In this document: positions 777-34,339 of the stretch, piece after piece
Numbering within the stretch: the stretch's first letter is position 1
Layout: every line of letters starts with the position of its first letter
Assembly (NCBI GenBank): GCA_019090895.1
Contig: JAHRVB010000121.1
Span: 10,513 to 74,512, forward strand
Reading direction: 5' to 3'
Source: Kangiellaceae bacterium
GTDB taxonomy: Bacteria; Pseudomonadota; Gammaproteobacteria; Enterobacterales; Kangiellaceae
Length of the DNA: 64,000 nt
Made by a program: the position numbers and the translations under genes
The notes under the pieces: model-generated
What the model was told of the DNA's origin: nothing
The model's database searches: none
What the model saw: only the letters and a program-made list of their open reading frames with translations

Positions 777-803
777 TTTTCCAAAAGCTAGCAACTATCC
801 TCA

Positions 804-1175: not shown

Positions 1176-1352
1176 TTTTCCTATTTCTGTTTATCAAAAA
1201 ACTAAAGATTAATGATGTAATCCCTATCGTTAAGCCTATTGTTAAGCCTTAGGTGATATACATACATACAACACCGAAACAGGATAGCATTATTGGTTAG
1301 ATAATCCAGAGATAAACTATTTCAAAGTATGTCTAGGCTTTCTTCTCGACAT

Positions 1353-1376
1353 AAAAAAAGACCCGTTAATGGTCTT
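1353..1376 (-). terminator. Rho-independent terminator downstream of the ECF/anti-sigma/DUF4097 operon
   Basis: The minus strand reads AAGACC-attaacg-GGTCTT followed by a T run. Confidence 0.5.
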
Positions 1377-1445
1377 CTTTTATGCCTACACTGGCAAACT
1401 TACCTCGGCATTTCGATAACTTAAATGCATTTAGAACTTGGCTTT

Positions 1446-2327: not shown

Positions 2328-2398
2328 TTCTAGTGACCTCTATTTATTACTTATGATGCGTTAACTAATTTAAATCGCAATTCAATGTTGATGCTCTT

Positions 2399-3759: not shown

Positions 3760-3802
3760 TCTCGATTTTCCAGCGCAGTTAATTATTTAGATACTATTCA
3801 AT

Positions 3803-3825
3803 ACGTTGGAATTTGTAAAAGGTTT
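3803..3825 (-). promoter_or_regulatory. Weak candidate ECF-type promoter (AAC-N16-CGT) upstream of the sigma gene
   Basis: The minus strand reads GCAAACC-TTTTACAAATTCCAA-CGTAT about 45 nt upstream of the ATG at 3759. This is a pattern match only. Confidence 0.2.
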
Positions 3826-3907
3826 GCGATAATTAAGAAATTTTTGATCAAAAAAATAATATCGCGACGCAGTAGTCGCAGGTTCAAGGCTGAACTAAGT
3901 TTAGAAA

Positions 3908-4537: not shown

Positions 4538-4540
4538 TAA

Positions 4541-5497
4541 CTAACTTATAGATGATGAGGCTGATTTTAAATCAAAGTTAGTCACAAATGAATCATAAGA
4601 TTCTTTTTCAACAATGGCGCCTTTGCGTTGAACCACAAAACCTGCGGCCGATGAGGCAAAAGAAATAGCCTCCTCACATGTTTTCCCTTGTAATCGAGCA
4701 CCTAAATACACACCGTTAAATCCATCACCAGCGGAAGTTGTGTCAACCACATTTAAAACGGGAACAACCGCGCATTCCTGAATAGTGCCTCTTTGAACAG
4801 AGACAACGTTTTGGCTTCCGTTTTTAATAACCACTTCTTCAATATCGAAATTAGTGAGAAATTCGACTAAATCGTCGGTCGACTCAATCCCATACAGCTT
4901 ACTAAAATCATCAATCCCTGGCAGTGCTATTTGACAAATATTAAGGGCCCTTTCAATTTGTTGTTTGGCTTCTTGCTCGCTTTGCCATAAGCGCGCTCGG
5001 TAATTTGGGTCAAAAACAAGTGTTACTCCTACTTGCCTTAAGGTTTCTACCATATGCCAAAACTTATCGCGCTCAGACGGTTTTATTACGGCAAGTGAAA
5101 TGCCGGAGAAAAAAAACATCTTTTGTTTAGAAAGTCTTCCTACATCAGCCGGTGCCACATGAGACATGATTTCTCGCGCTGCTGAATCACTCCGCCAATA
5201 GGTAAAACTGCGCTCGCCCGCGTCATCTGTTTTAATCGCGTACAAACCAGCACTTTTAGTTTTAGATGAATAAACGAATTCGCAACCGATGGACTCATCA
5301 GCAAAATACTGGAGCATTTTTTCGCTGTAACTATCAGAACCAACAGCTGTCATTAAGCTAACGTCGACTTGAGTGAAAGTCCTCGCCAGGTACACCGCCG
5401 AATTAAATACATCCCCGGCAAATGACTGCTTTAATAAACCATCTTCTTGCTGGCTTAGTTCAACCATGCACTCGCCAAAAAATACGATTTTACCCAC
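4541..5497 (-). CDS. kdgK: 2-keto-3-deoxygluconate kinase (PfkB family)
   Basis: PfkB motifs (GECMVEL, DTTSAGDGFNG). Overlaps the end of the MFS gene and lies next to eda. Confidence 0.85.
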   Translation of the reverse strand: MGKIVFFGECMVELSQQEDGLLKQSFAGDVFNSAVYLARTFTQVDVSLMTAVGSDSYSEKMLQYFADESIGCEFVYSSKTKSAGLYAIKTDDAGERSFTYWRSDSAAREIMSHVAPADVGRLSKQKMFFFSGISLAVIKPSERDKFWHMVETLRQVGVTLVFDPNYRARLWQSEQEAKQQIERALNICQIALPGIDDFSKLYGIESTDDLVEFLTNFDIEEVVIKNGSQNVVSVQRGTIQECAVVPVLNVVDTTSAGDGFNGVYLGARLQGKTCEEAISFASSAAGFVVQRKGAIVEKESYDSFVTNFDLKSASSSIS

Positions 5498-14351: not shown

Positions 14352-15860
14352 TTAATTGGCGTACTTATCATGACTATTATTGAGCTCATAAAATGTCGCT
14401 TGCGCAAATTCACCTTCATCAGCACTGTTATTAACGTGATAAACACCGGCCTTAAAATACTGATATTGATCGTCCGAATCGTAGCCGCTCTCTCTCATGT
14501 CGACGGTCTGTACAACGCTCTCTTTACCGGGTCTGTGTATGCTAACGACCAGAATGTTTCCAGTGGCTTCGATCTCGTAGCTAAATTTTTCATCTAAAGC
14601 GATACCATCTATGGGGTTATCAGTCTCATTGGCTCGACTACCGATCATTTCATAGTTACGATCGTCCCCGCCTTTTACTTCGTGCGCTAGATATATCGCC
14701 CCATGACTATTGTCTGGCAGCTTTCGGTAATAAAGGCGAACAGGCTCATCATCATTAGCGTGGATCTGACCGATAATGATACGGCCAATCTGATAATTTA
14801 ATCCCGTACTTGTCACTTGATTCACCGCGAGTGTTGCAAACAAGCGACCATCAACTCCGCCTGCGGCATCTCTTGCCGTTTCTGAGGCACTACCAAATAC
14901 CCAGTTATTTTTATTTACGCCTTGAGTACTATGTTGAGTATTTCCGCGACGGAGCATTTCTCTTAATTCAACTCGAACATAAGAAGTATTGGTTGAAGTT
15001 TTAAAACCTGTTGTTGGAGATTTGAAGACTAAACCACCATCATCGCCGGTATAGAAAAATGCTCTATCTTCATAACCACTGTTAAGCTCATTTTCCTTAA
15101 TGGAATCAGAAGTGCCACTTCCATCTTCATCGGTGGGTATACTTAAATACCAGTCTTGCAAATCGAAATTTTGTGATGGGGGCAATCGAGGATCGAGATC
15201 TAATCGAGTGTAATCGGTTAAATCAAAATCGGAAGTTCTGGTTATTAGTTCATCCAAATTTTCGGAGGTTACCGATTCATTATTACAACCTTGAATGGCA
15301 ACTTCCACAACACCATTTTCTGCGCCAAACTCATTTCCATGACTAATAATTTTTAGATACTGTGCACTTATTGGGTCAAATTCAAATGACTGGATATCAT
15401 TTGATAGGCCTGAACTCTTAACACTAGTGAGTACATCCCGCCAATCAATCTCATCATCAGAAAAGGCCACTGAAAATAAAGCTTCTCGTTGATTACCTAA
15501 ATACCATGCAATATCGAGACTTTTAATCAGCGAGCGGTAACTTAATTCAAATTGAATCGATTGGTCTAATGCGTTTGATTGCCAGCGAGATTCTTGACTA
15601 AAACTGGTATCAATTGATTTCTCAGCAGCATAATTATCTTGTTGGTAATCAGCTGCCACTCGATTGATCGGAAGGAATAATTTTGTGTCGCATGAAATGT
15701 CTGGTAGCTCATTTCCAATCGGATCAGCTGGTGCGCTAGACTGATTGATTGGGCTGCTTGGATTGCTACCGCTAGAACCACCACATGCAGTGAATAGTAA
15801 ACTGATCATCAAGAAAACTAGCGAATTTGCAGCTTTACCAATTACATCACTTTTTACCAA
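14352..15860 (-). CDS. PL7 alginate lyase lipoprotein with an N-terminal F5/8 type C (CBM32-like) module
   Basis: PL7 signatures RVELREML, QIHANDDEP and YFKAGVYHVNN, and a discoidin-like region (RWQSN...AQYLKII). The TTG start at 15860 has a GGAGG RBS 5 nt upstream and gives a lipobox (LLFTAC). Confidence 0.85.
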   Translation of the reverse strand: MVKSDVIGKAANSLVFLMISLLFTACGGSSGSNPSSPINQSSAPADPIGNELPDISCDTKLFLPINRVAADYQQDNYAAEKSIDTSFSQESRWQSNALDQSIQFELSYRSLIKSLDIAWYLGNQREALFSVAFSDDEIDWRDVLTSVKSSGLSNDIQSFEFDPISAQYLKIISHGNEFGAENGVVEVAIQGCNNESVTSENLDELITRTSDFDLTDYTRLDLDPRLPPSQNFDLQDWYLSIPTDEDGSGTSDSIKENELNSGYEDRAFFYTGDDGGLVFKSPTTGFKTSTNTSYVRVELREMLRRGNTQHSTQGVNKNNWVFGSASETARDAAGGVDGRLFATLAVNQVTSTGLNYQIGRIIIGQIHANDDEPVRLYYRKLPDNSHGAIYLAHEVKGGDDRNYEMIGSRANETDNPIDGIALDEKFSYEIEATGNILVVSIHRPGKESVVQTVDMRESGYDSDDQYQYFKAGVYHVNNSADEGEFAQATFYELNNSHDKYAN

Positions 15861-15939
15861 ACTAACCTCCAATCTAAAAATACAAGTCAACCGCTACCAA
15901 CGGTTATCATTCTTTTAATACTAAAATTCGCTTTTTCTT

Positions 15940-17028
15940 CTAAGGTGTATTATCTGGATCGTAAGGACCAGCAAGTTGTATTCGACTGAACGCCACAGAA
16001 GTATAATCACCATTCGCCTTATCAACTTTCCAATCGCCAGTCCCTGCGCAAGCGGCATACCAGAAAGCAGGGTCATCTTTAGTACTGCACTGGTTATACG
16101 CACCGGCTTTGAAGTAAAGCGCATCGCCGGAATAGCCTAACGGGTTATCTTTTTCGTCGACCTTTCCGTAGGCGTCGACATTGTTCGACAGATCGATCTG
16201 ATATTTGACCATCTTAGAAGGATCGCTGGTTCTAAATGTGAGGTACATAGTGTTACCGTGTACATTGATGTTGTAGTTAAATAACTCGCCAAGTGCTATG
16301 CCCTCTTTACCGGGATCTTGCAGGTTTTCCCAGGTGTTGCCCCATACTGAATAAGCGATGTCAGTCCTATCCGGGTTATCTTTCGCTAGGTTTCTTTCGT
16401 AAGTCCAGAACACGGAACCCGTTTTATGCTGAGGCCATTTTTTGTAGTAGACTTTGATAGGTTCGTTACCCCAGCCAAATCCCTTACCTTTGTTGATTAC
16501 TTCTTTATCTTTGTCGGCATGAATTTGCCCCACCACAACGGAATATGCTGGTTTCTTATTACCGTGCTTGGCATTCTTGGCAACATGCAACACTTTTAAC
16601 GTCGCCTCTAATTGTCCCCCGACGAGGGCAAAATACTTAGAACCGCGGTGAGCTTTTAGCGAGAAGTTGTTTTTGGGATGGTGGGTTCCAAATTTAGTAT
16701 TTTTACCACGCAGCATCTGACGTAACTCGCTACGAGTATTAGTAGAATTGGCGGAAGTCGTTGCTTTGTTTGGAGCAGTAAAAACAAGCAACCCATTTTC
16801 ATCAAGACTAAAAAAATCCGGATGCGAATATTCCTTTAATGATCGAACATTAACTTCATCGACTTTGCCGTCGTTGTTGTCATCTAATGGTAACGTGAGC
16901 TTCCAAAACCGCAAATCAATCTTATCAGCGGGAAAATGTTCATCGGAAGAATTATCACCAGAAGCCTCTGCGTAAATCATTGACGAAAATAATAGAGCTA
17001 ACATCAGGCCAGCCGATATAATACGCAT
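15940..17028 (-). CDS. PL7 alginate lyase, single catalytic domain, secreted
   Basis: Signal peptide, plus RSELRQML, GQIHADKD and YFKAGAYNQ. Confidence 0.85.
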   Translation of the reverse strand: MRIISAGLMLALLFSSMIYAEASGDNSSDEHFPADKIDLRFWKLTLPLDDNNDGKVDEVNVRSLKEYSHPDFFSLDENGLLVFTAPNKATTSANSTNTRSELRQMLRGKNTKFGTHHPKNNFSLKAHRGSKYFALVGGQLEATLKVLHVAKNAKHGNKKPAYSVVVGQIHADKDKEVINKGKGFGWGNEPIKVYYKKWPQHKTGSVFWTYERNLAKDNPDRTDIAYSVWGNTWENLQDPGKEGIALGELFNYNINVHGNTMYLTFRTSDPSKMVKYQIDLSNNVDAYGKVDEKDNPLGYSGDALYFKAGAYNQCSTKDDPAFWYAACAGTGDWKVDKANGDYTSVAFSRIQLAGPYDPDNTP

Positions 17029-17158: not shown

Positions 17159-20100
17159 TTAAAACTTTGCTTTTACACCAATGAAAAAGCGTGGTCCGTA
17201 GGATAACGTCTGTAGAACCTGTCCGCCTACAGGGCGGTAATCGATACGAGGTTCGTCCGTTATGTTCTTAGCCTGGAAATTAAGTTTAATACTATCCGTC
17301 AACTTGTAACTCATATTCAAATCCAATATCTGACTCGCAGCGGTGTAACGAATACGACCTTGAGTGTCCCGTCCATACTGCTGGAAATATTGCGATCGTG
17401 TTTTGTAGAGCAGTCTGATGTCCCAGTCTTCGTCGTTCCAATAGAGCTGAGTAGAGCTAACATGTTTGGATAATCCAAACAGGTTGGCAGGTTCGATAAT
17501 ACCAATTAGCGATGTCTCAGTGACCTCCCCAGTTTCTTGGTCAACAGTGGTCGTTATTCCATCACCACCATGCTGGTCCTCATACTCAAAATCGGAATCT
17601 GCGTAGTTGTAGCTCATTTTTGCGCCGAAACCACTCAAAAATCCGGGCAGGTAATCAAACGAATGAGTCATCGTTAACTCGAACCCTTTAACGGTGCTAG
17701 TATCATCGCTAATCTGGGTAGTTTCAACGAGACCCTGAACTTGGTTACCATCAAGGTTAAAGGTCTCAAGTTGGGCAACGGTCTCAAACCCACCATTGAG
17801 TTTCTTCCAATAGATCATTCCGGCGATCATGGTGTCTGTGTTTGCATACCATTCCAGACCGAGATCAAAGTTATCCGATAATATTGGATTCAGATAAGGG
17901 TTACCTGTAGCACTGATCCCATTAACCGCTTCAGATAGAGTAGTGTATGCATTTGATATATCGTTATCCTGTATCGAACGGCCATTACCATAGGAGTGAG
18001 GATCCGGACGTGACATCCCTCTGAATAGACCGGTTCTTAAGATCAAATCATCATCGAGATCGACAATAACCGTTAAGCTTGGGAGAATCTCCTGATAGCT
18101 ATTTTCTTGCGTATCGGTTTCAAGAACACCAGAAGTATCCTCCGTTACAACAAAACCTTCGTTGAATTCTTCAACCGTAATGGGTCCTCGATACCCAATA
18201 GAAGTGATCTCGGTTTCGACGTAACGAACACCAAAATTACCTCTTACTTCATAACCCGCAATATCTGTCGAGAAGTCTGCTTGAACATAAAACGCTAGTG
18301 TATCTTCTGTTACATCGTTGGTTCCTGAATTAATACCATCTTGGAATTGGATACCGGACAATCCGCCATAATTTTGTAAATAGGCGTTTGCAGCACAATC
18401 AAAGTTAAACGTTGCATATCCGTTTGTGGCCGAACCTGTGTTGGCGTTTGTTATGAGATCACTGCTTCGAACATTGGATAGAAAACCCGATTCAGGAAAA
18501 CGTTGATCGGCACAAGCCAGCACATCAGCAAGTATCGCATCTGTTACGCTATTGTCTGCAGTTCCATTAGCGGTGACTAGATCTTCGTCTTCAAATAAAC
18601 TTTCACCAGCCGCGTTTCTCGAGCCGCCCAGTGTTATATATTCCATTTTCGAGGCACGAACCCCCGCTTTCACAGTATGAATTGCACCACCTTTTTCCCA
18701 AGTCAGATCCGTACGAAAGGCATCCAATGTATTATCACGAGTTATCTGACGTGCTCGTAGTCGAGCGCGGTTCCGAGCATTAAAATAGCTTGGGTCTGTT
18801 ACTTCGAACCCGTTGCTGCCGTTATCAATGATAGTACCAATTGTAGGCCCAGGGTTTTCACCGTTTGTATCCAATTGAACAGTGAAATCGTCTGCGTTGC
18901 CGCCGACAAGGTTGTTGTCTGTCGCGCCGAGTCGTAGCTCTATATCCGTCTCAATTCGATTGGTATCCGATCGGGCATAGTCAAAGTTCAAAGTCAGATT
19001 TTCAGTCACTTGATAATCAACATTAAAACCGTAGCCCTTGTATTCTTCCAGACGCTGAAAATCAGTGGTATATGAGGAAAGATTGGTTTCTGAAATAGAC
19101 GAGAAAACTTCTCCCGAATAAGGGTTTGAAGTTAATGACGAAATATCTTCCTGTGTCGTTGCGTATTGAAAATCCTTACGTAGTTCTCGTTGGTCACGTT
19201 TGGAATATTGAAAATCTAACAGGATATCGAGTTTCTCATTCGGTTGAAATTGAATACTACCAAACAAAGACTCACGCTCATCATTTGTCGTGTTATGACG
19301 ATAGCGATGGTCCCGCGGAATATAAGCAAAAGGAATGTCGTCAACGGTATTATAGTTTGGATTAGAGTCAATTAGATCTTGTATCTCATCGTTACTAACG
19401 CCTGCCGAGCCATCATGACAACGGCCGTCAGTATCGGTGGGTAATGCGTCAAAATCAAATGAAGTTAACTCACAGGCTTCTAATCGCCCGCCACCCGAGG
19501 TCGTGTGGTATTCCTGCTCAGGGTTTGATTCCTCTCTCAGCTGTGCACCAAATGAGACGCCAAGGTTGGCACCATTGTCAAACTCAAACTGGTCGATATA
19601 GGCAAGTGTTGCACGAGATCCAAAATCCTGACCTCCGTCAATGTTAGCCTCATCTGGGCTATGCGCTAACTGAAGGTTTCCCTGAAATAACCGCTTTCCA
19701 TAAAGTAATGGTTTTTTGGTTTCTAGTTGAACCTGCCCACTGACGGCGCCTTCAATATATTCCGCTGATTGGGTTTTATGAATCGAGATCTTGTTGAACA
19801 TTTCAGAAGGAAAAATGCTGAAGTTTACTGCGCGGTTACCGCTTCCATTTGTTGCTTCTCGACCATTGACTACCGTCGTTCCCAGGAATGGTCCCAATCC
19901 TCTCACCGAAAGTTCTGATGCACCGCCATTTTCCTGATGCGCCGTGGCACCAGTAATTTGTTCGAGTGCACCACCGATTGATAATGCTGGAATCCCACCG
20001 ATATCATCAGCGGATAATCCGTCTACTATTTGAGTCGAATTTCGTTTGATAGCGATGGTACTTTGCACACTCGCCCGTGTGCCAGTGATAACCACGACGT

Positions 20101-20254
20101 TTTTATCCTCTTCATCTGACTCATCGGCTTGGTCAGCCTCCTGAGCGGACATCGCAGTATTTGCAGTTAACGTCAGGATTGCGGACAAAATAGCTATCGC
20201 TAAAGGTGATTTCCGTGAGGGAATAGCGTGCGTGACCTGCTTTGGTTTAAACAT
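17159..20254 (-). CDS. TonB-dependent outer-membrane receptor
   Basis: Signal peptide (LAIAILSAILTLTANTAMSAQE), plug region (NVVVITGTRAS...IVDGLSADDIG) and a C-terminal beta-barrel ending in ...GVKAKF. ATG at 20254 is preferred; ATG at 20332 is also possible. Confidence 0.85.
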   Translation of the reverse strand: MFKPKQVTHAIPSRKSPLAIAILSAILTLTANTAMSAQEADQADESDEEDKNVVVITGTRASVQSTIAIKRNSTQIVDGLSADDIGGIPALSIGGALEQITGATAHQENGGASELSVRGLGPFLGTTVVNGREATNGSGNRAVNFSIFPSEMFNKISIHKTQSAEYIEGAVSGQVQLETKKPLLYGKRLFQGNLQLAHSPDEANIDGGQDFGSRATLAYIDQFEFDNGANLGVSFGAQLREESNPEQEYHTTSGGGRLEACELTSFDFDALPTDTDGRCHDGSAGVSNDEIQDLIDSNPNYNTVDDIPFAYIPRDHRYRHNTTNDERESLFGSIQFQPNEKLDILLDFQYSKRDQRELRKDFQYATTQEDISSLTSNPYSGEVFSSISETNLSSYTTDFQRLEEYKGYGFNVDYQVTENLTLNFDYARSDTNRIETDIELRLGATDNNLVGGNADDFTVQLDTNGENPGPTIGTIIDNGSNGFEVTDPSYFNARNRARLRARQITRDNTLDAFRTDLTWEKGGAIHTVKAGVRASKMEYITLGGSRNAAGESLFEDEDLVTANGTADNSVTDAILADVLACADQRFPESGFLSNVRSSDLITNANTGSATNGYATFNFDCAANAYLQNYGGLSGIQFQDGINSGTNDVTEDTLAFYVQADFSTDIAGYEVRGNFGVRYVETEITSIGYRGPITVEEFNEGFVVTEDTSGVLETDTQENSYQEILPSLTVIVDLDDDLILRTGLFRGMSRPDPHSYGNGRSIQDNDISNAYTTLSEAVNGISATGNPYLNPILSDNFDLGLEWYANTDTMIAGMIYWKKLNGGFETVAQLETFNLDGNQVQGLVETTQISDDTSTVKGFELTMTHSFDYLPGFLSGFGAKMSYNYADSDFEYEDQHGGDGITTTVDQETGEVTETSLIGIIEPANLFGLSKHVSSTQLYWNDEDWDIRLLYKTRSQYFQQYGRDTQGRIRYTAASQILDLNMSYKLTDSIKLNFQAKNITDEPRIDYRPVGGQVLQTLSYGPRFFIGVKAKF

Positions 20255-20333
20255 AGTTAATCTCTCATTATTTGTTTTATTCTGTTCGAAATTATTCTTA
20301 TCGCACTCTTTAAGTTTGTTAGTTAACAGCATG

Positions 20334-23300
20334 TTATTCCTCCACTCCCACCGTTGCCTCGGATGTATTTGAGTGATAAGGCGAAGCTGCGTTATCATCA
20401 TCCAGAGAATCGCCCTCAAGATAAGACTCGAAGTCATCTGCAAACACTTCTGTCGTTCCCGCCGTGTCTGAGTATATGGCTAGCTCATCAACACTGAATA
20501 TGCCTGTGGCTAAGCGAACACCACCGTTATCTCCAAACCGTAACGCAACATGTGTCACGCCATTGAAGGCATTGTTGTCTAGCGTATAGGGAGCAAGACT
20601 GACACCATCCACAGTGATCGAAACTTCTGGAAGCGTTGTTGCTGGGTCACCACCCGGGTACTCCCAAGTAACAGCCACATTCATAAAACTATCTAGAGTA
20701 TGTGGCAACGTCGACGTATCGATGGTGCTTGGCGCTCTCACTCCAAAACTGTCATCGCGAATACGCAGGTCGAGAATTGCCCCATCGTTATTAGTGTTTT
20801 CGTTAAACAAAGTGATGAAGGCATCGCCATCGCCAAGGGTATCGTCCATTCGCTTCACTGCTATTTCTAGACGACCAGCCACAAGCGGGCCATTGGCAGC
20901 CAGTTCATATCTCAATTCTCCGGTATCGGTATCTAGCGTATCAACGATTTGTGCAAATTGATTACCAGCAGTTCCAGGACCACCTTCACTACTTTCCTCA
21001 GCACCAACTGTCGCCTCGGATGTGTTTGAATGGTAAGGCGAAGCGCCGTTATCTGTATCCAATGAATCGCCTTCTAGATAGGATTGAAAATTATCTGAGA
21101 ATACTGCCGACATACCATCGGTATCAGAATAAATCGATAGTTCATCAACACTGAATACACCTGTCGCTAAGCGCACACCACCATTATCACCGAAGCGGAA
21201 GGATACATGTGTCACACCATTGAAGGCGCTGTTGTCTAATGTATAGGGAGCAAGACTGACGCCATCCACCGAAATCGTAACTTGAGGAAGCGTTGTTGCT
21301 GGGTCTCCCAAGTACTCCCAAGAAATAACAACATCCATAAAGCTATCCAGAGAATGTGGCAGCTCAGAAGTATCGATAGTGCTTGGTGCTCTCACACCAA
21401 AGCTGCTATCCCTGATTCGGAAATCAAGAATGGCACCATCATTATTTGTGTTTTCGTTAAACAAGGTAATAAAGGCATCACCATCGCCTAAATCATCATC
21501 CAAGCGCTTAACGGCTACTTCAATTCGACCTGTTAATAAAGGACCATCAGTATCCAATGCATATCGCAACTCCCCGGTATCTGTATCAAGGGTATCAACG
21601 ATTTGAGCGAATTTATTACCGGGTGTTCCGGGCCCTGTAGCACCAGCAATGACTTCTACTGTAGCCTCAGATGTACTCGAATTAAAAGGCGATGCGGCAT
21701 TATCCGTATCTAGCGAGTCCCCTTCGAGGTAAGACTCAAAGTCATCAGAAAAGACTTCATTAAACCCTGCTGAATCGGAGTAAATGGCTAAGTCATCAAC
21801 ACTCACTTTGCCCGTGTCTAATCGCACACCACCATTATCACCAAAGCGAATGGCTACGTGTGTCACACCACCGATTGCGTTGTTATCCAGCGTGTAGGGA
21901 GCAAGACTGACACCATCCACCGAAATCGTAACCTGTGGAAGCTGCGCCGTATCCCCCCCTGGATATTCCCAAGTAATACGCACCTCCATGAAGTCATCAA
22001 GGGTATGCGGAAGCGAGGAGGTATCGATACTGCTTGGTGCTCTCACACCAAAGCTATCATCGCGAATACGGAAATCGAGAATTGCACCATCGTTATTGGT
22101 ATTTGAGTTAAACAAGGTAATAAACGCATCACCATCACCCAAGTCATCATCTAAACGTTTGATTTTTAGTTCAACACGCCCTGCTGCGAGAGGACCATCG
22201 GCATCTAGAGCGTATCGCAATTCGCCGGTATCTGAATCAAGGGTATCAATAATGACAGCAACTTTATTGTCGCCGCCAGCGGGCGCTCCGCCCACACCGT
22301 TAATAGTAATCACTAAATCTGCCGTGGTTCCATCAACGGATGAAATTTGGATGGTATCCGTCAGTCTGCCGCCCTGAATCATCGCAGCAATAGTAGCGTG
22401 TGTTGTATCGAGTGTGTATTCCCAAGCGCCAGATGGCAAGATTGAAAAGGTACCGTATTCAGTCATTGTCGCTATTTGTTCGACAAGCATATCTTCACCG
22501 GGATCCGGGTCTAGCACGGTGACATTGTCCGTTAATACATCAGTAATATCGCTATTTATAGCACCCACTAAGTTAAAGAACGCAGCCGGTGTAGTCTCAT
22601 CAGATGAACTGACATCGTATGTAGATACCATTGCATCGACTGACAATTGATATGCTGAAGAACTGCCAAAGGTGTTTCCGACATCATATCCCTCGAAATC
22701 ATCTTGGAAAACAGGTGTTGTGCCTGCAGTGTCGGAAGTGAGTACCACATTGTCGATATAATAAGCGCCGAACGGAATCGTTGTACTATTGTCGCCAAAG
22801 CGCCACTGTATAGTTTCTACCCCCTCAGCAAACCACTGATCAAGTGATGTGAAATCTGAATCGACAACAGCAGCCGTGGAGAATGGTCCGTTCCCCAAAA
22901 CTTCGCCATTGAGAAGGATAATGATCTGATTTACGTCGGCCATATCCCAAATAATTTCAACTTCATACCATTCGTTAGGGGTGAAGGGAGCCTCGACGGT
23001 ATCACCAGGATAAGCAGCGTCATCGGTATTACGAACTAGAAATCTTGGTTCTCTGATGCTGCCATCATCTTCTGTCGCTTGCCCTTGTATACGAAGGTCA
23101 ACGAGTGATTCTGAACTACTTCCTGACGAGCCGTATAAAGTTATGTAGGCATCTTTTTGATTGCCATCATCGGCAAGCGCTTCAGTTTTAAGAAATGAAA
23201 ATGACAGTCTTCCTTGCTGCTGATGGGGGTCAAGATTGAGTCTCAACTCTCCCGTATCGCCGTTAATCGTATTTCTTATTTCCGCGACTTGCGTCAACGC

Positions 23301-24536
23301 GGAAACACGAATAACCAAATTCGCCGTTGTACCGTCAATGGATGTCAGCATAACCGTATCGGTAACAGATTCACCAACCGCGAGGCCGGCTACTGTTTCA
23401 TTGGTAGTATCCAACGTATAGGTCCAAGCGCCGCTTTCTTCGATGTTGAATGTACCATAAGTAGTCTGTAAATCTGTTTGAGCAACGACCCTGTTTTCCC
23501 CAAAATTTACATCAGTCACAATCACTGTCCCGGAGATAGGGTCGACTTGATCATTCGGAATCGTCGCACTCAAGTTTTCGAATATGGCTGCCTCGGGTAC
23601 ATTTTGAATGGCGTTCTGTACTGCTAGTAACGCGGCGCTGCCTATATTGTCAGCAACTGGTGAAGTACTTAAATCAGCAGCTGCCGCAATGAAGTCATCA
23701 ACAGTAGCGGTCGAGAAAGTTCCATCCGTTAAATCAGTACTGAGTGCGGCAATAATGATCGCCGCATCCGAATCAGGATCATTTGCGTCTAATTGCGAAA
23801 TCAAAGCCAATGCGACTGCATATCGACCTGCAGCATCATCGACAGCAGCAGTTATCGCTAAATTAGTTGGCTCAGTAGAATAAATAGTGTGTGATGCTTC
23901 ATCAGATAGGTCATCGGGAAGCCCAAAAATAACAGCAACTGCGAGGTTATGAGTAGAAATTGCTGTGTTTAAATCGCCTGCAGCTTCTGCTAATTGGGTT
24001 GCGATTTCAGTCAATGGTGAGACGGTAAAAGTAGCGTCGCTTATCACATCGACCACTGCTCGAGTATTCGGAGCATCCAAGACAGCACCGGTTGCTTCAT
24101 CAACATAGGTTCCACCCATACAGGAAATTAACGCTGTTCCATCAACAGGTACCAGCCCAGCAAAAGTCACAGAGCCATTACTGGTTATGCCAGAAGCCAA
24201 CGGAGTACTCGCCGTAGCCCCGCTCGCATCAACAGCAGAAATTTCGCAAGTTGCCCCATCGACAAGTCCATGAAAAAATAGCGCACTCAGGTTGAAAGCG
24301 GCTTGAACATCTACGCCATCTGACTCGATTGTTTCACGAAGGCCCGAATTATCGTCAAAGCGAGCAACAACAGTGACTAGTTCACTACCTTCGTCTTGAG
24401 TTAGTGTGTAGGAGGGGGGAAGTTGCTTCTGAAATAATATCCCCATCAGAATACCACTGATAACTATCAGTACCAGATTCAAGGCCATCCGGATCAGATA
24501 TCGTGGCAGACAGGGTCTCGCCGACAACGGCCTCAC
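20334..24536 (-). CDS. Body of a giant modular surface protein (two VCBS-like repeats and four ConA/LamG-like modules). Its true N-terminus lies in another frame (see 24385-24651).
   Basis: Long ORF. VCBS-like units (YGTFNIEESGAWTYTLD..., YGTFSILPSGAWEYTLD...). Modules start with F.DDFE.Y and end with VD(D/E)L(A/S)IYSD. Confidence 0.75.
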   Translation of the reverse strand: MRPLSARPCLPRYLIRMALNLVLIVISGILMGILFQKQLPPSYTLTQDEGSELVTVVARFDDNSGLRETIESDGVDVQAAFNLSALFFHGLVDGATCEISAVDASGATASTPLASGITSNGSVTFAGLVPVDGTALISCMGGTYVDEATGAVLDAPNTRAVVDVISDATFTVSPLTEIATQLAEAAGDLNTAISTHNLAVAVIFGLPDDLSDEASHTIYSTEPTNLAITAAVDDAAGRYAVALALISQLDANDPDSDAAIIIAALSTDLTDGTFSTATVDDFIAAAADLSTSPVADNIGSAALLAVQNAIQNVPEAAIFENLSATIPNDQVDPISGTVIVTDVNFGENRVVAQTDLQTTYGTFNIEESGAWTYTLDTTNETVAGLAVGESVTDTVMLTSIDGTTANLVIRVSALTQVAEIRNTINGDTGELRLNLDPHQQQGRLSFSFLKTEALADDGNQKDAYITLYGSSGSSSESLVDLRIQGQATEDDGSIREPRFLVRNTDDAAYPGDTVEAPFTPNEWYEVEIIWDMADVNQIIILLNGEVLGNGPFSTAAVVDSDFTSLDQWFAEGVETIQWRFGDNSTTIPFGAYYIDNVVLTSDTAGTTPVFQDDFEGYDVGNTFGSSSAYQLSVDAMVSTYDVSSSDETTPAAFFNLVGAINSDITDVLTDNVTVLDPDPGEDMLVEQIATMTEYGTFSILPSGAWEYTLDTTHATIAAMIQGGRLTDTIQISSVDGTTADLVITINGVGGAPAGGDNKVAVIIDTLDSDTGELRYALDADGPLAAGRVELKIKRLDDDLGDGDAFITLFNSNTNNDGAILDFRIRDDSFGVRAPSSIDTSSLPHTLDDFMEVRITWEYPGGDTAQLPQVTISVDGVSLAPYTLDNNAIGGVTHVAIRFGDNGGVRLDTGKVSVDDLAIYSDSAGFNEVFSDDFESYLEGDSLDTDNAASPFNSSTSEATVEVIAGATGPGTPGNKFAQIVDTLDTDTGELRYALDTDGPLLTGRIEVAVKRLDDDLGDGDAFITLFNENTNNDGAILDFRIRDSSFGVRAPSTIDTSELPHSLDSFMDVVISWEYLGDPATTLPQVTISVDGVSLAPYTLDNSAFNGVTHVSFRFGDNGGVRLATGVFSVDELSIYSDTDGMSAVFSDNFQSYLEGDSLDTDNGASPYHSNTSEATVGAEESSEGGPGTAGNQFAQIVDTLDTDTGELRYELAANGPLVAGRLEIAVKRMDDTLGDGDAFITLFNENTNNDGAILDLRIRDDSFGVRAPSTIDTSTLPHTLDSFMNVAVTWEYPGGDPATTLPEVSITVDGVSLAPYTLDNNAFNGVTHVALRFGDNGGVRLATGIFSVDELAIYSDTAGTTEVFADDFESYLEGDSLDDDNAASPYHSNTSEATVGVEE
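20337..22268. repeat. Three tandem coding repeats of about 650 bp (20337-20963, 20964-21617, 21618-22268)
   Basis: The encoded modules are identical at most positions, for example DTLDTDTGELRYAL, GDGDAFITLFNENTNNDGAILD.RIRD and RFGDNGGVRLATG. Confidence 0.85.
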
Positions 24537-24651
24537 CGCTTATGCTCACAACACCATTAGAGCCTTCCACCAAAGGAACCTCATCGCGACTACTTCCGCA
24601 GCCAACCAACGTCATAATCAGTGCTGCATAAAAAAAGACTCTATAGTTCAT
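24385..24651 (-). CDS. N-terminal fragment (lipoprotein signal plus start of an Ig-like repeat) of the giant protein, cut off by a frameshift
   Basis: MNYRVFFYAALIMTLVGC lipobox. ...YQWYSDGDIISEATSP continues as SYTLTQDEGSELVTV in the 20334-24536 frame. Confidence 0.7.
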   Translation of the reverse strand: MNYRVFFYAALIMTLVGCGSSRDEVPLVEGSNGVVSISGEAVVGETLSATISDPDGLESGTDSYQWYSDGDIISEATSPLLHTNSRRR

Positions 24652-25303: not shown

Positions 25304-25333
25304 AAAAAAAAAGCAAGCCAACAAGGCTTGCTT
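25304..25333 (-). terminator. Rho-independent terminator of the second TBDR gene
   Basis: 9-bp stem AAGCAAGCC/GGCTTGCTT with a 5-nt loop, followed on the minus strand by a T run. Confidence 0.7.
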
Positions 25334-25435
25334 TTCATTTTATCCCTAAGCTCTGTAAAACAGTTCAGTCGTCTGCCATCAGCGATGGCATTCATTTGTT
25401 CTACAACAGCTTATTGCTTTTACGCGTTTCAAATA

Positions 25436-29062: not shown

Positions 29063-30352
29063 TCACTTTTTCGGTTTAGCAGAGTACTTTCGATAAAGCC
29101 TTTTATGGCGATTGTCGACATTCACCTCTCGCCCTTCTATGTAGACGGCTTCGACATTATGAGTAAGATGATCAAATAAATCACCACCACTGATCACAAT
29201 ATTGGCTTGTTTTCCTTCAGACAGCGATCCCATTTTATCAGCAACACCTAGTATTTTGGCCGGAGTAAGAGTGATCGACTCTAGCGCTCTATCCGCTGAG
29301 ACTCCGTAAGCGATCGATTGACCTGCGGCGAACGCTAGATTACGTACTGGCCAATTACTTTCGATAGCAAGAGCAAAATTAACCCCTAGCGACTCTAACG
29401 TTGCTGGAGTTGCATAAGCCCTATCCATTGCTTCATCACTGCGCCAAGTTTGCCCCCACGCAGATGTGTATACCACTGGAATGTTGCGAGCCTTTAACAA
29501 ATCTGCCGCTTTGTCAGCATCTCGTCCACCAACAATCACAATGTTGAGTTTTTCAACATCCGCAAAATGAACAGCTTGCTCGATTTGTCGGTAATCATTG
29601 GCATGAATAAATAGTGGGGTTTTTCCACTCATGACAGAGCGCATCGCTTCCCACCTTAAATCAATGGCTTGAGCTTTGTTTTCATCCCGAGCTTTAACGT
29701 AACTCTTAATACTCGCGATAAGCTCTGCAAATTGTTTGCTCGCTTTGGTATTCGCTTCACGTTGTTTTTCTGGGGTACGAGATTCCCACCAAGACTTATT
29801 AAGTCCAGCCGAAGGCCATCTTAAATGCATTGCGGTATTTTCTTTTACCAATGCATTTTCCCAACTCCACCCATCCAATTGCATTAACGACGACTGACCA
29901 TTTAAACCACTTCCACCGGGAGCAATTTGAACGTGAGTAACGCCATTACTTCGAATGGTTGGAATGATTTCCGAATCTGCATTGTATGCAACATGCGCTT
30001 TTACTTCTGGAGTCGCTCTACCGGTTTCGTTGGCATCCCGTGTGGCTCTAACCGCACCAACTTCCACTAAGCCGACGTTGGTTGCTAATCCAATCAATCC
30101 TGGATAAATTTGTTTACCCGTTGCATCGATCACCTCAGCACCTTGTGGAGCAGCCAAATTTTGACCAATCTTGCTAATAAGACCATCCTCTAACAATAAG
30201 TCATAATCTTGCTTAGTGCCGTCGGTAACGGTATGCAGCGTTCCGCCCTTGATTAAAATTGGGTTGGATTGTTTCGCGCCGGGCACGATGTCTGTTGCTA
30301 TCGCACTTAAACTAATACTTGCCAATAATACTAAATTCGCTAATTTTTTCAT
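29063..30352 (-). CDS. Periplasmic amidohydrolase-superfamily protein lacking an obvious HxH metal motif
   Basis: Signal peptide from ATG 30352 (MKKLANLVLLASISLSAIA). TAATG overlap with the upstream gene. PGLIGLATNVG occupies the place of PGxIDxHxH. Confidence 0.65.
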   Translation of the reverse strand: MKKLANLVLLASISLSAIATDIVPGAKQSNPILIKGGTLHTVTDGTKQDYDLLLEDGLISKIGQNLAAPQGAEVIDATGKQIYPGLIGLATNVGLVEVGAVRATRDANETGRATPEVKAHVAYNADSEIIPTIRSNGVTHVQIAPGGSGLNGQSSLMQLDGWSWENALVKENTAMHLRWPSAGLNKSWWESRTPEKQREANTKASKQFAELIASIKSYVKARDENKAQAIDLRWEAMRSVMSGKTPLFIHANDYRQIEQAVHFADVEKLNIVIVGGRDADKAADLLKARNIPVVYTSAWGQTWRSDEAMDRAYATPATLESLGVNFALAIESNWPVRNLAFAAGQSIAYGVSADRALESITLTPAKILGVADKMGSLSEGKQANIVISGGDLFDHLTHNVEAVYIEGREVNVDNRHKRLYRKYSAKPKK

Positions 30353-33300
30353 TATAGCTGCCCTCCATTTTGATTGGACTTCCACTGCCAGAAATCGAAG
30401 TTATCATCACAATGCCACTGTGCCTCATCTTTAAGCAAATAAACCTGCTCAGTTGACTTAGATGGTTTCATCAATTTACTAGCGTCAGTGCCTTTCTTTT
30501 TGCCTTCCGCTTCAGTTAACAGCTTCTGTATTAATTGATTTTTTTCTGCTGCGATCGCTTTTCGAGCTTCAAGATCAGCGCTTCGATTAAAGTAGTTTGT
30601 TCCATCGATCCACGTTTGTTCAACTTTCGAATAAATTGATAAAGGATGGCCACTCCAAATAACGAAATCAGCGTCTTTTCCTTTCTTCAAACTACCCGTA
30701 TATTGATCGATCTTAAGCTGCTTAGCAGGATTAATGGTTACCATATTAAGCGCGTTCTCTTGACTCATACCACAATGTTGAACTGATTTAGCTGCTTCCG
30801 TATTTAAACGACGAATCAAATCTCCGCTGTCCGAATTAACTGACACATTGACACCACGATCCATCATTAAACAAGTATTCATAGGAATCGCATCCAAGAC
30901 TTCAAACTTATACGCCCACCAGTCAGAAAAAGTCGAACCTGATGCGCCATGTTTGGCCATCTCGTCTGCAACTTTATAGCCCTCTAAGATATGGGTAAAC
31001 GTTTGAATTCTGAAATCAAAATCTTCTGCGATATTCATCAAACTAAGTATTTCGGAAGCCACATAAGAGTGTGAATGAACAAAACGTTGTTGGTCCATTA
31101 TTTCTACCAGTGCATCCATTCGATAGTCTTTTCTAGGCGCCGAAGTTAACTTTTTCTTACTTCTCGAAAGTCGTTCATATTTATCCCACGATGCTTGGTA
31201 ATCCTGTGCTCGGGTAAATGCATCACGCACAATAGTTTCTACACCCATTCGAGTTTGCGGATAACGAATGGTAAACTTGTCTCCCCAATTACTTTGCTTT
31301 ACGTTTTCACCTAACGCAAATTTAATCGAACCTGGTGCTCTCTTTTCCATCATTTTTTCTGCAGTAGCACCCCAGCGAAGCTTAATTACCTGCGCTTGCC
31401 CACCAACAGGATTGGCTGAGCCATGAAGCAATTGTGCAGTCGTTGTGCCCCCGGCTAAAGCCCGATAAATATTGATATCGTCAGGATTAACCACATCACC
31501 AATTCGAACTTCAGAAGTTATTGCGTCGCTACCTTCGTTAACGCCTTTACTGATTGCGATATGAGAATGTTCATCAATAATGCCGGCGGTGACATGCTTG
31601 CCTTTACCCTCTATAACTAGGTAACCTTTAGGCGCTTTGAGACCTTTACCAATTTTTGATATTTTCCCTTTCTTCACTAGCAAATCAGCTCCTTCAAGTA
31701 CCCCCTGTTTCTCAGAAGTCCAAATGGTCGCGTTCTTGATAAGAACGTTTTGTTGCTTAGCTTGGTTGGTTAAACCAAATGCTCGATTTGGTGATGTTAC
31801 TTGACTTAAATAGGTAAGTGCTTGCTGTTCAGATGATTCGTCTTTTTCTTTGTTGTCTAATTCAGATTTAGCGGCACTAAACGTTACTTTTTTAGCATTG
31901 GGTTCAAGGTACACTCCCACAAATTTATCATCGATTAATCTTCCACTAAAACGATAAACCCCGGGTAATCCAAGTTCAGCCAGATCAGCCGAAAATAACA
32001 AACTATTGTCTTGGTTAACACTGACTTTAATCGAAGATTTCTTTTCGTCTTTAAGGAGCTTACCCGTGACTTTCGTATCTTTTTTAGTCAGCTCTAAGGT
32101 CAATTCGGCTCCAGAGACGTCAAAAGCATACTTACCCGCAAAAGTTGCCGGCTGAATAGCTGAGAAATTTGTTTCTTTCCCTTGCATCCAAACACTTTTG
32201 ATCATTCCATCATCAAAAATGTTGCCGTCAGTTACCACTATATCAGCAAACATTCCCGTTGCGATTTTACCTGCATTTCTATTAATTCCGGCTAGTTTAG
32301 CGGGAACCGTTGTAAGTGCCGCTAGTGCATCTTTTTCAGATAAACCATGTTTAACTAAAGTGCGAAGTTTAGTCCAGAATTGATCCGGCTTCTTAAGACC
32401 ATGCTGAGTAAAAGCAAATGGGATTTTATTACGGGCTAAAACAGAAGCATTTGTCGGTGCTCTTTCCCAGTGTCTTAACTCACCAAGTGATACATCCAAC
32501 TGAGCCTCATAACTAGTCACATCTGGTTTAGCTGGTAGAGTTAAAGGCAATATGAAAGTTGCATTGGTTTCTTTTATTTCATTAATACGTGCGTATTCAT
32601 GGCCATCTGCGACGAAGCTGGCTGAAATTTCGAATTGATCGAATAATTTATCCGCTCTTAAAGTGGATAGATAATCATCCGCATTAAAAATAAGACCCGA
32701 CTTTTCTATTTCAGAAATAGAATCTAATGTTCGATTATATTCTACCAACTGACCTGTATTAAGATTATCGGTTTTTCCTTTGGCAGATTGGTACCAACTC
32801 GCGTCACTTAGGGTTTGGCGAATTAATGCCATGCTTCCCATCAATGAACTTGGGTATTCTTGTTTTGAAGAACCTTTATCAAACGAACCGAAATGGCTGG
32901 CATGTGAGTTATAAATCAGATCATTTGGCAGTCCGTTCGAAAGTGAAACAGTTACCCCTTGCCCTTGAAAAATACCATCCAATTTTGCGGTTTGTACTGC
33001 GGTATATCCGTTCTTAGTAAAGGCAGTTGCAACTTTTGGGTCTGCTTTAAATTCTTCTACCCAGTCGATTTCAGCATGCACTGCATTATTCCAACTATTT
33101 CCGCCTTTTCGTACACCGGTATATTTGGGCCCATCATTTCGGCTCTTCTTAACTTTTTTCTCTTTAACCGTTGCATAGTTACTGTATGGATCAATAAATC
33201 CGGGGTAAACAATGTGAGACGTCAGGTCAATTTCCGTCGCGCCTGACGGGACCTTTCCGTTCGCTTTTACACTCACGATTCGGCCGTTATCAATAACAAG

Positions 33301-33477
33301 CGTTGCATTTTTGATGGATTTTCCTGGTTCTACAAAAACGGTGGCATGCATTAGCGCAAAATGGTTGGTGCTACGATCATGAAGTCCATAAACATGGCTA
33401 GTTTGATCTGCATAAACACTATTTGCTCCAAGCACAGCCAACGTAGCGGCAAGTGCCGAGTGACTGAGTTTCTTCAT
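30352..33477 (-). CDS. Large periplasmic two-domain amidohydrolase-family protein
   Basis: Signal peptide. The N-terminal half has PGFIDPYSNY (no HxH) and the C-terminal half has the canonical GIIDEHSHIA. Confidence 0.7.
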   Translation of the reverse strand: MKKLSHSALAATLAVLGANSVYADQTSHVYGLHDRSTNHFALMHATVFVEPGKSIKNATLVIDNGRIVSVKANGKVPSGATEIDLTSHIVYPGFIDPYSNYATVKEKKVKKSRNDGPKYTGVRKGGNSWNNAVHAEIDWVEEFKADPKVATAFTKNGYTAVQTAKLDGIFQGQGVTVSLSNGLPNDLIYNSHASHFGSFDKGSSKQEYPSSLMGSMALIRQTLSDASWYQSAKGKTDNLNTGQLVEYNRTLDSISEIEKSGLIFNADDYLSTLRADKLFDQFEISASFVADGHEYARINEIKETNATFILPLTLPAKPDVTSYEAQLDVSLGELRHWERAPTNASVLARNKIPFAFTQHGLKKPDQFWTKLRTLVKHGLSEKDALAALTTVPAKLAGINRNAGKIATGMFADIVVTDGNIFDDGMIKSVWMQGKETNFSAIQPATFAGKYAFDVSGAELTLELTKKDTKVTGKLLKDEKKSSIKVSVNQDNSLLFSADLAELGLPGVYRFSGRLIDDKFVGVYLEPNAKKVTFSAAKSELDNKEKDESSEQQALTYLSQVTSPNRAFGLTNQAKQQNVLIKNATIWTSEKQGVLEGADLLVKKGKISKIGKGLKAPKGYLVIEGKGKHVTAGIIDEHSHIAISKGVNEGSDAITSEVRIGDVVNPDDINIYRALAGGTTTAQLLHGSANPVGGQAQVIKLRWGATAEKMMEKRAPGSIKFALGENVKQSNWGDKFTIRYPQTRMGVETIVRDAFTRAQDYQASWDKYERLSRSKKKLTSAPRKDYRMDALVEIMDQQRFVHSHSYVASEILSLMNIAEDFDFRIQTFTHILEGYKVADEMAKHGASGSTFSDWWAYKFEVLDAIPMNTCLMMDRGVNVSVNSDSGDLIRRLNTEAAKSVQHCGMSQENALNMVTINPAKQLKIDQYTGSLKKGKDADFVIWSGHPLSIYSKVEQTWIDGTNYFNRSADLEARKAIAAEKNQLIQKLLTEAEGKKKGTDASKLMKPSKSTEQVYLLKDEAQWHCDDNFDFWQWKSNQNGGQL

Positions 33478-33781: not shown

Positions 33782-34339
33782 ATGCTATCGAGAATTTTAC
33801 GATTAAATAAGGCAGGCCAAGCCCTTGAATGGATTGAGATTGAATCCGCTGCGTGCCTTTATGCTAAGAAAAGAATATTGTGGACCTACGGGGAACAATC
33901 AATTCGACTACACGGTGGAATGGCGCGGTTGACAGGAACACAATCCATTCTCGATATCATTTCGGTCATCGCCACAGATGGCAAAATCAACACCAGCGAT
34001 ACTCGAACTCCTCGACTTTGTAATGAATCATTGTTTCGACGTGATTCATTACATTGTATGTATTGCGGCAATCATTTCAATCGTGGGTTGCTAACACGTG
34101 ATCATATTATTCCAAGGGCTCTAGGTGGACGTGACCGCTGGGAAAATTGCATTACCGCTTGTAAAAGCTGCAACAACTTAAAAGGCAGTCGCACACCGGA
34201 GCAAGCCAACATGCCTCTCCTTGCGGTACCTTTTAGACCCAACAAGTCTGAATACCTTGCATTACAAAACCGTAATATATTGGCAGACCAAATGGCGTTT
34301 TTAACTCGGAGTTTTAGTAAGAATATGAAACGGTATTAA
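33782..34339 (+). CDS. HNH endonuclease family protein
   Basis: CMYCGN...TRDHIIPRALGG.DRWENCITACKSCNNLKG is an HNH/Cys-box signature. Confidence 0.8.
   Translation: MLSRILRLNKAGQALEWIEIESAACLYAKKRILWTYGEQSIRLHGGMARLTGTQSILDIISVIATDGKINTSDTRTPRLCNESLFRRDSLHCMYCGNHFNRGLLTRDHIIPRALGGRDRWENCITACKSCNNLKGSRTPEQANMPLLAVPFRPNKSEYLALQNRNILADQMAFLTRSFSKNMKRY

Follow-up and report, generated by a model that had tools for sequence, protein, structure and literature searches.

A 64,000-nt stretch of contig JAHRVB010000121.1 from a Kangiellaceae bacterium (hereafter the window, to which all coordinates refer) carries a minus-strand gene (20334..24651) for a lipoprotein of 1,438 amino acids (aa) with four ConA/LamG-like jelly-roll modules. 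We found that this module defines a rare, unnamed family that hardly occurs outside alginate loci in either of its two phyla. Because the family is almost confined to alginate-degradation clusters, the lipoprotein most likely captures alginate for a receptor, and we regard it as probable, if narrowly so, that its four modules form an alginate-binding array that feeds the adjacent TonB-dependent receptor (TBDR) in a manner resembling SusE/SusF. The module itself is most likely a non-catalytic unit that binds alginate or oligo-alginate, comparable to a carbohydrate-binding module (CBM). This reading is based on its tandem copies, its fusions to lyases and CBM32, its lectin-type fold without a catalytic set and its exclusivity to alginate loci.

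We searched 1.84 billion representative proteins with the third module of the lipoprotein (M3) as the query (E ≤ 1e-3) and obtained only 145 clusters. The family proteins bear one to four tandem modules, usually at the C-terminus, and the single-module versions are short (~250–350 aa). A lipobox-type N-terminus was present in 78 of 97 family representatives and in at least 61 of 70 proteins taken from genome loci. When one genome of each GTDB species was scanned with alignment A4 of closer relatives as the query, 78 loci emerged. The higher groups with the module are Alteromonadales, Cellvibrionales, Vibrio, lineages known from metagenome-assembled genomes (MAGs) and Bacteroidota; the taxa comprise Paraglaciecola, Glaciecola, Aliiglaciecola, Alteromonas, Shewanella, Rheinheimera, Alishewanella, Thalassotalea, Colwellia, Psychrosphaera, Gilvimarinus, Luminiphilus, Vibrio crassostreae, MAGs labelled Woeseiaceae or Kangiellaceae, and some Bacteroidota. 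Cultured strains with the module include Alteromonas sp. KUL49, Glaciecola sp. XM2, Shewanella electrodiphila DSM 24955, Gilvimarinus japonicus 12-2 and Vibrio crassostreae 1F243. The public names of the homologues that we inspected are 'hypothetical', 'VCBS domain-containing' or 'PKD domain-containing' protein, those from cultured strains bearing only the first two, with one exception, 'Dystroglycan-type cadherin-like domain-containing protein', which UniRef assigned automatically. The protein was not the subject of any study found in literature searches that combined alginate with VCBS, cadherin, PKD or surface glycan-binding protein (SGBP) near TonB receptors.

The restriction to alginate loci was evaluated in the 72 loci whose flank reached 4 kb or more on one side (flanks were fetched up to 10 kb on each side), and homologues of lyases were judged against the window's own polysaccharide lyases (PL) of families PL6, PL7 and PL17. 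A PL6, PL7 or PL17 homologue lay within the fetched flanks in 65 of the 72 loci, and four of the remaining seven are shorter loci of 10–13 kb. A TBDR gene on the same strand was found within 250 nt in 39 of the 72, in either gene order, and within 800 nt in five more. In the clade of four-module proteins (~1,430 aa) that includes the window, whose loci come mostly from MAGs, an orthologue of the window's downstream receptor (TBDR1; 68–86% identity) lies 21–167 nt downstream, mostly at ~65 nt. The locus L002 (73% identity) has the same order as the window, namely TBDR2, GntR, lipoprotein, TBDR1, PL7 and CBM32-PL7. In Alteromonadaceae, Shewanella and Rheinheimera (~1,216 aa, three modules), a TBDR1-like receptor (38% identity) is located 30–200 nt upstream, and in Gilvimarinus (~600 aa, two modules) a TBDR lies ~500 nt downstream. 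The two-module proteins of Thalassotalea and Colwellia are followed by PL7 at 150–200 nt, and the Paraglaciecola proteins, which have three or four modules, are accompanied by a divergent PL7 and have no adjacent TBDR.

Five clusters fuse the module to alginate lyases, in the arrangements PL7-module-module (P0124), CBM32-PL7-module (P0147), four modules-PL7 (P0150), module-PL7 (P0257) and, in Colwellia echini, CBM32-two modules-PL6-CBM4_9 (P0180). The module thus takes CBM-like positions in both PL7 and PL6 fusions. Very large lyases that join the module with CBM32, CBM4_9 and PL6/PL7 were also observed (L075 from Colwellia echini A3, 3–5360; P0150; P0124), and one such module-bearing lyase is an open-ended protein of at least 1,785 aa.

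Bacteroidota contain a large set of ~350-aa proteins named 'PKD domain-containing protein', in which a PKD domain and a single module follow a lipobox whose Cys is succeeded by acidic residues. The two genes of this type that were checked (L081, 10001–11050; L082, 10001–11053) lie beside SusC/SusD, PL7 and PL6. Around the lipidation Cys, the Bacteroidota members read SCGDDD or a similar sequence. The named members belong to Saprospiraceae, Lewinella, Cyclobacteriaceae or unclassified Bacteroidia; the module was also present in loci L068 and L071, both of them from Flavobacteriaceae MAGs, and no cultured flavobacterium with the module was found in these searches.

Along the lipoprotein, the order of the parts is lipobox, Ig-like domain, second beta-sandwich, helical bundle, VCBS domain, M1, VCBS domain, M2, M3 and M4, all encoded on the minus strand. 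The signal peptide (24598..24651) agrees with the bacterial lipoprotein pattern ([LVI][ASTVI][GAS]C after a signal peptide) in MNYRVFFYAALIMTLVGC, where the lipobox is L-V-G-C, acylation is predicted at Cys18 and positions +2 to +4 are G-S-S. An AlphaFold2 (AF2) model of aa 19–470 (pLDDT 91.4) is divided into four parts. The N-terminal Ig-like beta-sandwich (aa 34–109; 24324..24552), which spans the frameshift described below, was recognized from the model, from Foldseek and from a weak NCBIfam match to the ZirU family (E = 6e-6, below the cutoff). It is followed by a second beta-sandwich (aa 121–210; 24021..24290, from the AF2 secondary structure) with two invariant cysteines (C117 and C159 in A3 numbering, i.e. 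aa 135 and 177), by an Ala/Asp-rich bundle of seven helices (aa 212–348; 23607..24017, pLDDT mostly >90) and by the first VCBS/cadherin-like beta-sandwich (aa 356–450; 23301..23585), supported by TIGR01965, AF2 and a sub-threshold match to Pfam Cadherin_4. In Foldseek, the N-terminal half came closest to RTX-adhesin extender repeats and cadherins (6xi1, E = 1e-9) and to S-layer proteins, and a weak match to a Bacteroides SGBP-B (B. ovatus, 6e9b) was also obtained.

The remainder of the protein starts with module M1 (aa 450–691; 22578..23303, from segment BLAST and the hidden Markov model (HMM) envelope), which is divergent and carries insertions, and continues with the second VCBS beta-sandwich (approximately aa 691–790; 22281..22580), M2 (aa 791–1002; 21645..22280, envelope E = 2e-118, 75% identical to M3), M3 (aa 1009–1219; 20994..21626, HMM envelope) and, at the C-terminus of the protein, M4 (aa 1227–1438; 20337..20972, recognized by HMM envelope, AF2 and Foldseek). 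When the full protein was compared with Pfam and NCBIfam, only the VCBS family of NCBIfam scored above threshold (TIGR01965, E = 3.9e-32, 110.4 bits against a cutoff of 15.5), in two stretches that share 44% identity by segment BLAST (aa 355–470 and 689–812). By the same method, M2, M3 and M4 are 75–81% identical to one another (E of 1e-89 to 1e-108), and M1 is ~29% identical to M2–M4 (E = 1e-16). The observation in an earlier, sequence-only reading of this DNA (hereafter the first-pass annotation) was confirmed with corrections: its frameshifted gene of about 1,440 aa, lipobox signal, Ig-like N-terminal part, two VCBS-like repeats, and one divergent and three near-identical modules were all recovered, and its Ala/Asp-rich helical region holds for aa 212–348 and gives way to the second beta-sandwich in residues 121–210.

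Three features of the repeats were seen in comparisons of orthologues. M1 aa 451–550 is the most conserved stretch (83–86% column identity against 52–74% for most of aa 1–450), its insertions are not found in M2–M4, and M1 may do a different job, for example contact with another ligand or with the receptor. In a comparison of 101 orthologues, the M3 and M4 copies within one protein resembled each other more closely (median 85%) than did modules at the same position in different orthologues (78–79%), which suggests concerted evolution or gene conversion among the ~650-bp repeats (M2–M4, 20337–22280). Close relatives alternate between three modules (~1,210 aa) and four modules (~1,430 aa).

The structure of M4 was predicted with AF2 on an alignment of 84 diverse modules. 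The resulting model of this ~210-aa unit is all-beta and confident (pLDDT 91.2, pTM 0.90), and a Foldseek search against the Protein Data Bank (PDB) gave 163 matches at E ≤ 1e-3, of which the best 50 are nearly all ConA-like folds, with a few botulinum-toxin binding domains among them. The kinds of protein matched are pentraxins, neurexin LNS domains, sialidase lectin domains or CBMs, galectins, GH16 glucanases and PL7 lyases. The TM scores were 0.40–0.55 at 8–17% identity, and therefore no close solved structure exists. At the level of fold, the model thus places the module, as a two-sheet jelly roll, in the ConA-like lectin/glucanase superfamily, in agreement with the jelly roll proposed in the first-pass annotation. 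At the level of sequence, neither the window protein nor M4 matched Laminin_G_3 (PF13385), whether at the gathering threshold or at E ≤ 0.01, and weak matches to it occurred in 24 of the 84 family modules (E ≤ 0.01, best 5.3e-8). For the modules of the window protein, no Pfam family at all gave a match at E ≤ 0.01. Nothing significant was obtained when the PDB sequences were searched with a single module or the 84-sequence profile; the best matches, an LSm protein (E = 0.31) and a synaptotagmin (E = 0.031), were judged to be due to chance.

Nine positions are near-invariant across the 84 modules (D16, G23, L25, R26, G38, W108, D167, F186 and L195), only three of which (D16, R26 and D167) are polar, and the alignment shows the module signature DT...DTGELRY. 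The motif VF.DDFE.Y...SEATV follows every module, the last included, and the family proteins usually end right after it; the HMM match in related proteins extends to within a few residues of the C-terminus. Because the motif follows each module and usually ends the proteins, it represents the C-terminal part of the module, where the AF2 model has a pLDDT of 95–98, and not its beginning as had been annotated.

We also compared the module with families that might have explained it. A relationship to PL7 was rejected, as the first-pass annotation had anticipated: there was no Alginate_lyase2 match in Pfam, hhalign gave a probability of 0.24% between the module and PL7 profiles, and the motifs invariant in the PL7 profile, R.ELR (R(S/T/N)ELR), QIH and YFKAG.Y (YFKAG(V/I)YNQ), have no equivalents in the module. 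CBM96, the DNRLRE domain that binds alginate through Lys and Arg (PMC9971899), was rejected as well, since there was no NCBIfam match to DNRLRE (NF033679) at E ≤ 1 and CBM96 binds via basic residues; its structure 7VBO was not among the best 50 of the 163 Foldseek matches. The lipoprotein has no F5_F8_type_C match indicative of CBM32, which a neighbouring PL7 gene does have, and no CBM-type Pfam family was recognized among the module matches, CAZy itself not having been searched. Pfam gave no match to SusD/RagB, and the modules are all-beta and not alpha-helical and TPR-like; for the full protein, there was also no Pfam match to the SusE or SusF families at E ≤ 1. In line with the earlier remark that no characterized member was known, the module matched no characterized family in the searches of Pfam, NCBIfam and the PDB.

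The composition of the lipoprotein is strongly acidic. Asp and Glu make up 16.3% of its residues and Lys and Arg 3.5%, which gives a net charge of –12.7 per 100 aa (neighbouring proteins, ~0 to –8), and the median for the module family is –11.7. Asp-rich loops such as DDDLGDGD and NENTNNDG are present. LamG- and pentraxin-type domains include several that bind anionic ligands through Ca2+ at the rim. Because the modules are very acidic and alginate is a polyanion, uronate carboxylates would probably be recognized via bound Ca2+, as in LamG and pentraxin domains. We propose that the lipoprotein would be anchored in the outer membrane, with its N-terminal half (Ig-like, beta-sandwich, helical and VCBS parts) serving as a stalk that displays the four modules. 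With four copies, alginate chains would be bound multivalently at the cell envelope; they might then be kept for the co-encoded PL7 lyases and passed to the TBDR encoded immediately downstream, which is probably co-transcribed.

Several known systems resemble this arrangement. SusE and SusF (the SGBP-B type) are Bacteroidota lipoproteins in which CBM-like beta-sandwich domains stand in tandem after an Ig-like spacer at the N-terminus; they are encoded beside the TonB-dependent transporter of a glycan locus, and surface capture of polymer through several binding units is the role that we propose for the target by analogy with them. The target shares this architecture and position by analogy only; unlike them, it has no sequence relationship to the group, its binding units are ConA/LamG-like jelly rolls and not the SusE/F fold, its host is a gammaproteobacterium without a SusD partner and its binding is putative. 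The interpretation in the first-pass annotation, in which the protein was an SGBP analogue beside a TBDR, is thus partly supported: architecture and locus position agree with it, and the likeness is to SGBPs of the SusE/F type, not to SusD. Its premise that Gammaproteobacteria lack SusD holds generally, with a published exception in fructan polysaccharide utilization loci (PULs) (PMC13543919, PMC13000452).

In multimodular PL7 and PL6 enzymes, the module stands where the CBMs of alginate lyases (CBM32, CBM16, CBM13 and CBM96) do. It is a beta-sandwich that occurs in tandem copies, is restricted to alginate systems and co-occurs with CBM32; it differs from these CBMs in being neither F5/8-C (CBM32) nor DNRLRE (CBM96) and in being very acidic. 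The LamG/LNS/pentraxin domains (Pfam Laminin_G_3) gave the best structural matches (C-reactive protein 1lj7, E = 6e-6; neurexin LNS), but the TM score is only ~0.5 at 10–16% identity, and the module has extra C-terminal strands, VF.DDFE.Y...SEATV, which are the signature of its family. The proteobacterial pairs TbpA/TbpB, LbpA/LbpB and HpuA/HpuB likewise combine a TonB-dependent transporter with a surface lipoprotein whose gene adjoins, and is probably co-transcribed with, that of the transporter, and they work by capture and subsequent hand-off; their ligands are iron proteins instead of a glycan, fold and ancestry differ, and contact with the receptor is putative in the present case. Finally, the PKD protein of the Gramella forsetii GFO_1155 type is encoded in a flavobacterial alginate PUL with SusC/SusD and lyases and is induced by alginate, and Kabisch et al. 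proposed that it bridges the substrate to the TBDR (PMC4069401). The Bacteroidota lipoproteins with PKD and one module lie in the same kind of locus, and GFO_1155 is a candidate relative; our searches for this link gave proteins from Saprospiraceae, Lewinella and MAGs, not from Gramella or Zobellia.

A number of observations weigh against an alginate-binding array that feeds the receptor. The main difficulty is the acidity, which disfavours simple electrostatic binding of a polyanion; binding would need Ca2+ bridges, and otherwise adhesion, Ca2+ handling or catalysis would come into consideration. Not every member of the family has a neighbouring TBDR: there is none beside the gene in Paraglaciecola, and the receptor gene of Thalassotalea and Colwellia lies at a distance of 2.6 kb on the opposite strand. 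Because the family is rare, the lipoprotein gene is not universal in alginate loci, and most of these loci work without the module family. The window gene is itself frameshifted, and the product from its annotated internal start has no signal peptide. The literature searched held no binding, localization or expression data on any member. In addition, PL7 lyases share the jelly roll (TM 0.41–0.51), so that by fold alone catalysis would be conceivable.

If the modules were enzymes, representing a new polysaccharide-lyase family or an alginate-modifying activity on a jelly roll, the lipoprotein would be a surface-anchored multi-catalytic degrader. PL7, PL14 and PL18 lyases have the same fold, PL7 structures are among the Foldseek matches, two modules have weak matches to Pfam Polysacc_lyase (PF14099), and D16, R26 and D167 could in principle form a Ca2+-plus-Arg site like that of PL1/PL6. 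However, the module profile shows no similarity to that of PL7, a conserved set of His, Tyr, Gln or Lys is missing, the best fold matches are of the lectin type (pentraxin, LNS and sialidase CBM), and the occurrence of up to four tandem copies and of fusions to true PL7/PL6 domains alongside CBM32 is typical of binding modules, which makes catalysis improbable in our view. We also considered that the acidic, Ca2+-binding array might tether the cell to Ca-alginate gels or algal surfaces, or loosen the gel by competing for Ca2+, without delivering oligomers to the receptor. An adhesin or cation-handling protein of this kind would be consistent with the resemblance of the N-terminal half to RTX-adhesin extender repeats and cadherins, with VCBS domains, which are typical of large adhesins, with the net charge and Asp-rich loops, and with the lack of an adjacent TBDR in some clades. 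The short single-module versions are nevertheless unlike adhesins, and the tight same-strand association with a TBDR in two gene orders, together with the SusC/SusD neighbourhood in Bacteroidota, points to a role in uptake; we consider a mainly adhesive or cation-handling role unlikely.

A related scheme, which we hold to be as improbable as catalysis, centres on Ca2+: the modules would not be ordinary CBMs, and either alginate would be recognized only via Ca2+ bridges, or Ca2+ would be stripped from egg-box junctions and the alginate gel on the cell surface made soluble for the lyases and the receptor. If this were true, the protein would be a non-enzymatic gel-loosening factor, partnered with a TBDR in Gammaproteobacteria and with SusC/D in Bacteroidota. 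It is also conceivable, with still lower probability, that the outer-membrane lipoprotein faces the periplasm, where it would bind oligo-alginates once the TBDR had imported them and hand them on to lyases of the periplasm or to the major facilitator superfamily (MFS) transporter. Lol-sorted lipoproteins of Proteobacteria mostly face the periplasm, and no genes for surface-lipoprotein export (Slam or a type II secretion system) were found within the window. On the other side, acidic residues after the lipidated Cys are a surface-export signal in Bacteroidota, and the members from that phylum are acidic directly after this residue; a 1,438-aa protein with a stalk and a four-module array suits polymer capture outside the cell, and the fusion partners include lyases with signal peptides and CBM32. 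Capture of alginate for the receptor, with Ca2+ as a probable bridge, is the interpretation that we retain.

The state of the gene in this genome was considered separately. Two overlapping minus-strand open reading frames (ORFs), 24651..24385 (88 aa, opening with MNYRVFFYAALIMTLVGC) and 24536..20334 (1400 aa), make up the lipoprotein gene, which ends with a stop codon at 20336..20334. Their frames meet at TCCCCCCTCC, and removal of one C gives a single ORF of 1,438 aa. The site is a C6 homopolymer (24414..24419, minus strand), at which the frame is split at about codon 78. Because six orthologues have 9 nt here (e.g. TCATCCTCC or TCCTCTTCC) and the window has 10 (TCCCCCCTCC), the break is a +1 insertion of C. 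Intact full-length orthologues are common (1,420–1,460 aa; P0002 has 86% identity at 100% coverage). Compared with L003, the closest orthologue that is intact, every region of the gene has a dN/dS ratio of ~0.05, and therefore the frameshift is recent or an artefact; it is due to an error of assembly or else to an inactivation that happened very recently. A real mutation that leaves the organism currently without the lipoprotein is possible but doubtful: the frame is broken at codon 78, and the public entry P0001 ('Kangiellaceae bacterium', 99% identity, apparently the same MAG) is annotated from an internal start after the break, with 1,370 aa and no signal peptide, but there is a single lesion, which lies in a homopolymer as is typical of assembly or sequencing errors, the other ~1,360 codons are open, the dN/dS ratio is low, and no further large ORF looked disrupted in the ORF list of the window that was inspected.

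The window locus, annotated earlier as an alginate locus, is a complete alginate system. It contains genes for 2-keto-3-deoxy-6-phosphogluconate aldolase (Eda), 2-keto-3-deoxygluconate kinase (KdgK), an MFS transporter, PL17, PL6, GntR, a reductase, two PL7 enzymes (one with F5/8-C, i.e. CBM32), TBDR1, the lipoprotein and TBDR2. TBDR1 (17159..20254, minus strand; plug and barrel domains) lies directly downstream of the lipoprotein gene and is followed by the two PL7 genes (15940–17028, and 14352–15890 with CBM32, both minus strand). A strong, terminator-like hairpin after the TBDR2 gene (25308..25336, minus strand; a 12-bp stem and then a T-run) separates TBDR2 from the transcription unit of the lipoprotein, and no terminator-like site was found between the lipoprotein stop codon and TBDR1. 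Judging from this arrangement, co-transcription of the lipoprotein gene with TBDR1 and the PL7 genes is likely. The ATG that gives TBDR1 a normal signal peptide (20254) is 79 nt past the lipoprotein stop codon, and an alternative in-frame ATG (20332) is 1 nt past it; the first-pass annotation had put the stop codon 2–80 nt from the TBDR start. The last codons of the lipoprotein, GTG GAG GAA TAA, supply a Shine-Dalgarno-like GGAGGA 5 nt before the nearer ATG (20330–20345, minus strand). Translation of the TBDR could thus be coupled to that of the lipoprotein, or the receptor could have an alternative start that lengthens it by 26 residues.

Some other genes of the window were also recorded. Beside the alginate catabolic genes, an extracytoplasmic function (ECF) sigma factor gene (3208–3759) is followed by two ORFs without a Pfam match (2399–3211 and 1446–2327). 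Another ECF sigma factor is encoded in an apparent plus-strand operon (41377–47700), together with proteins without a Pfam match (682, 409 and 214 aa) and an S8 subtilase. Two adjacent amidohydrolase-family genes (29063–33477, minus strand; 440 and 1,041 aa) overlap by 34 nt and may be two genes or a single disrupted one. Between them and an M16 peptidase gene, a stand-alone HNH endonuclease gene (33782–34339, plus strand; 185 aa) is found in the opposite orientation, possibly left behind by a mobile element.

Alginate is a major marine carbon pool. To our knowledge, Gammaproteobacteria are generally without SusD, and for the step in which they catch polymeric glycans ahead of TonB-dependent uptake the module family is a concrete candidate, since it is borne on lipoproteins, restricted to alginate loci, paired with transporters in two gene orders, shared with PULs of Bacteroidota and also appended to PL7 and PL6 lyases. 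If binding proves true, it would represent a new CBM family, and the lipoproteins would be a gammaproteobacterial counterpart of surface glycan-binding proteins that partners TonB-dependent transporters. Its recognition would also improve the annotation of marine polysaccharide loci, in which such genes are now only 'VCBS domain-containing' or 'PKD domain-containing'.

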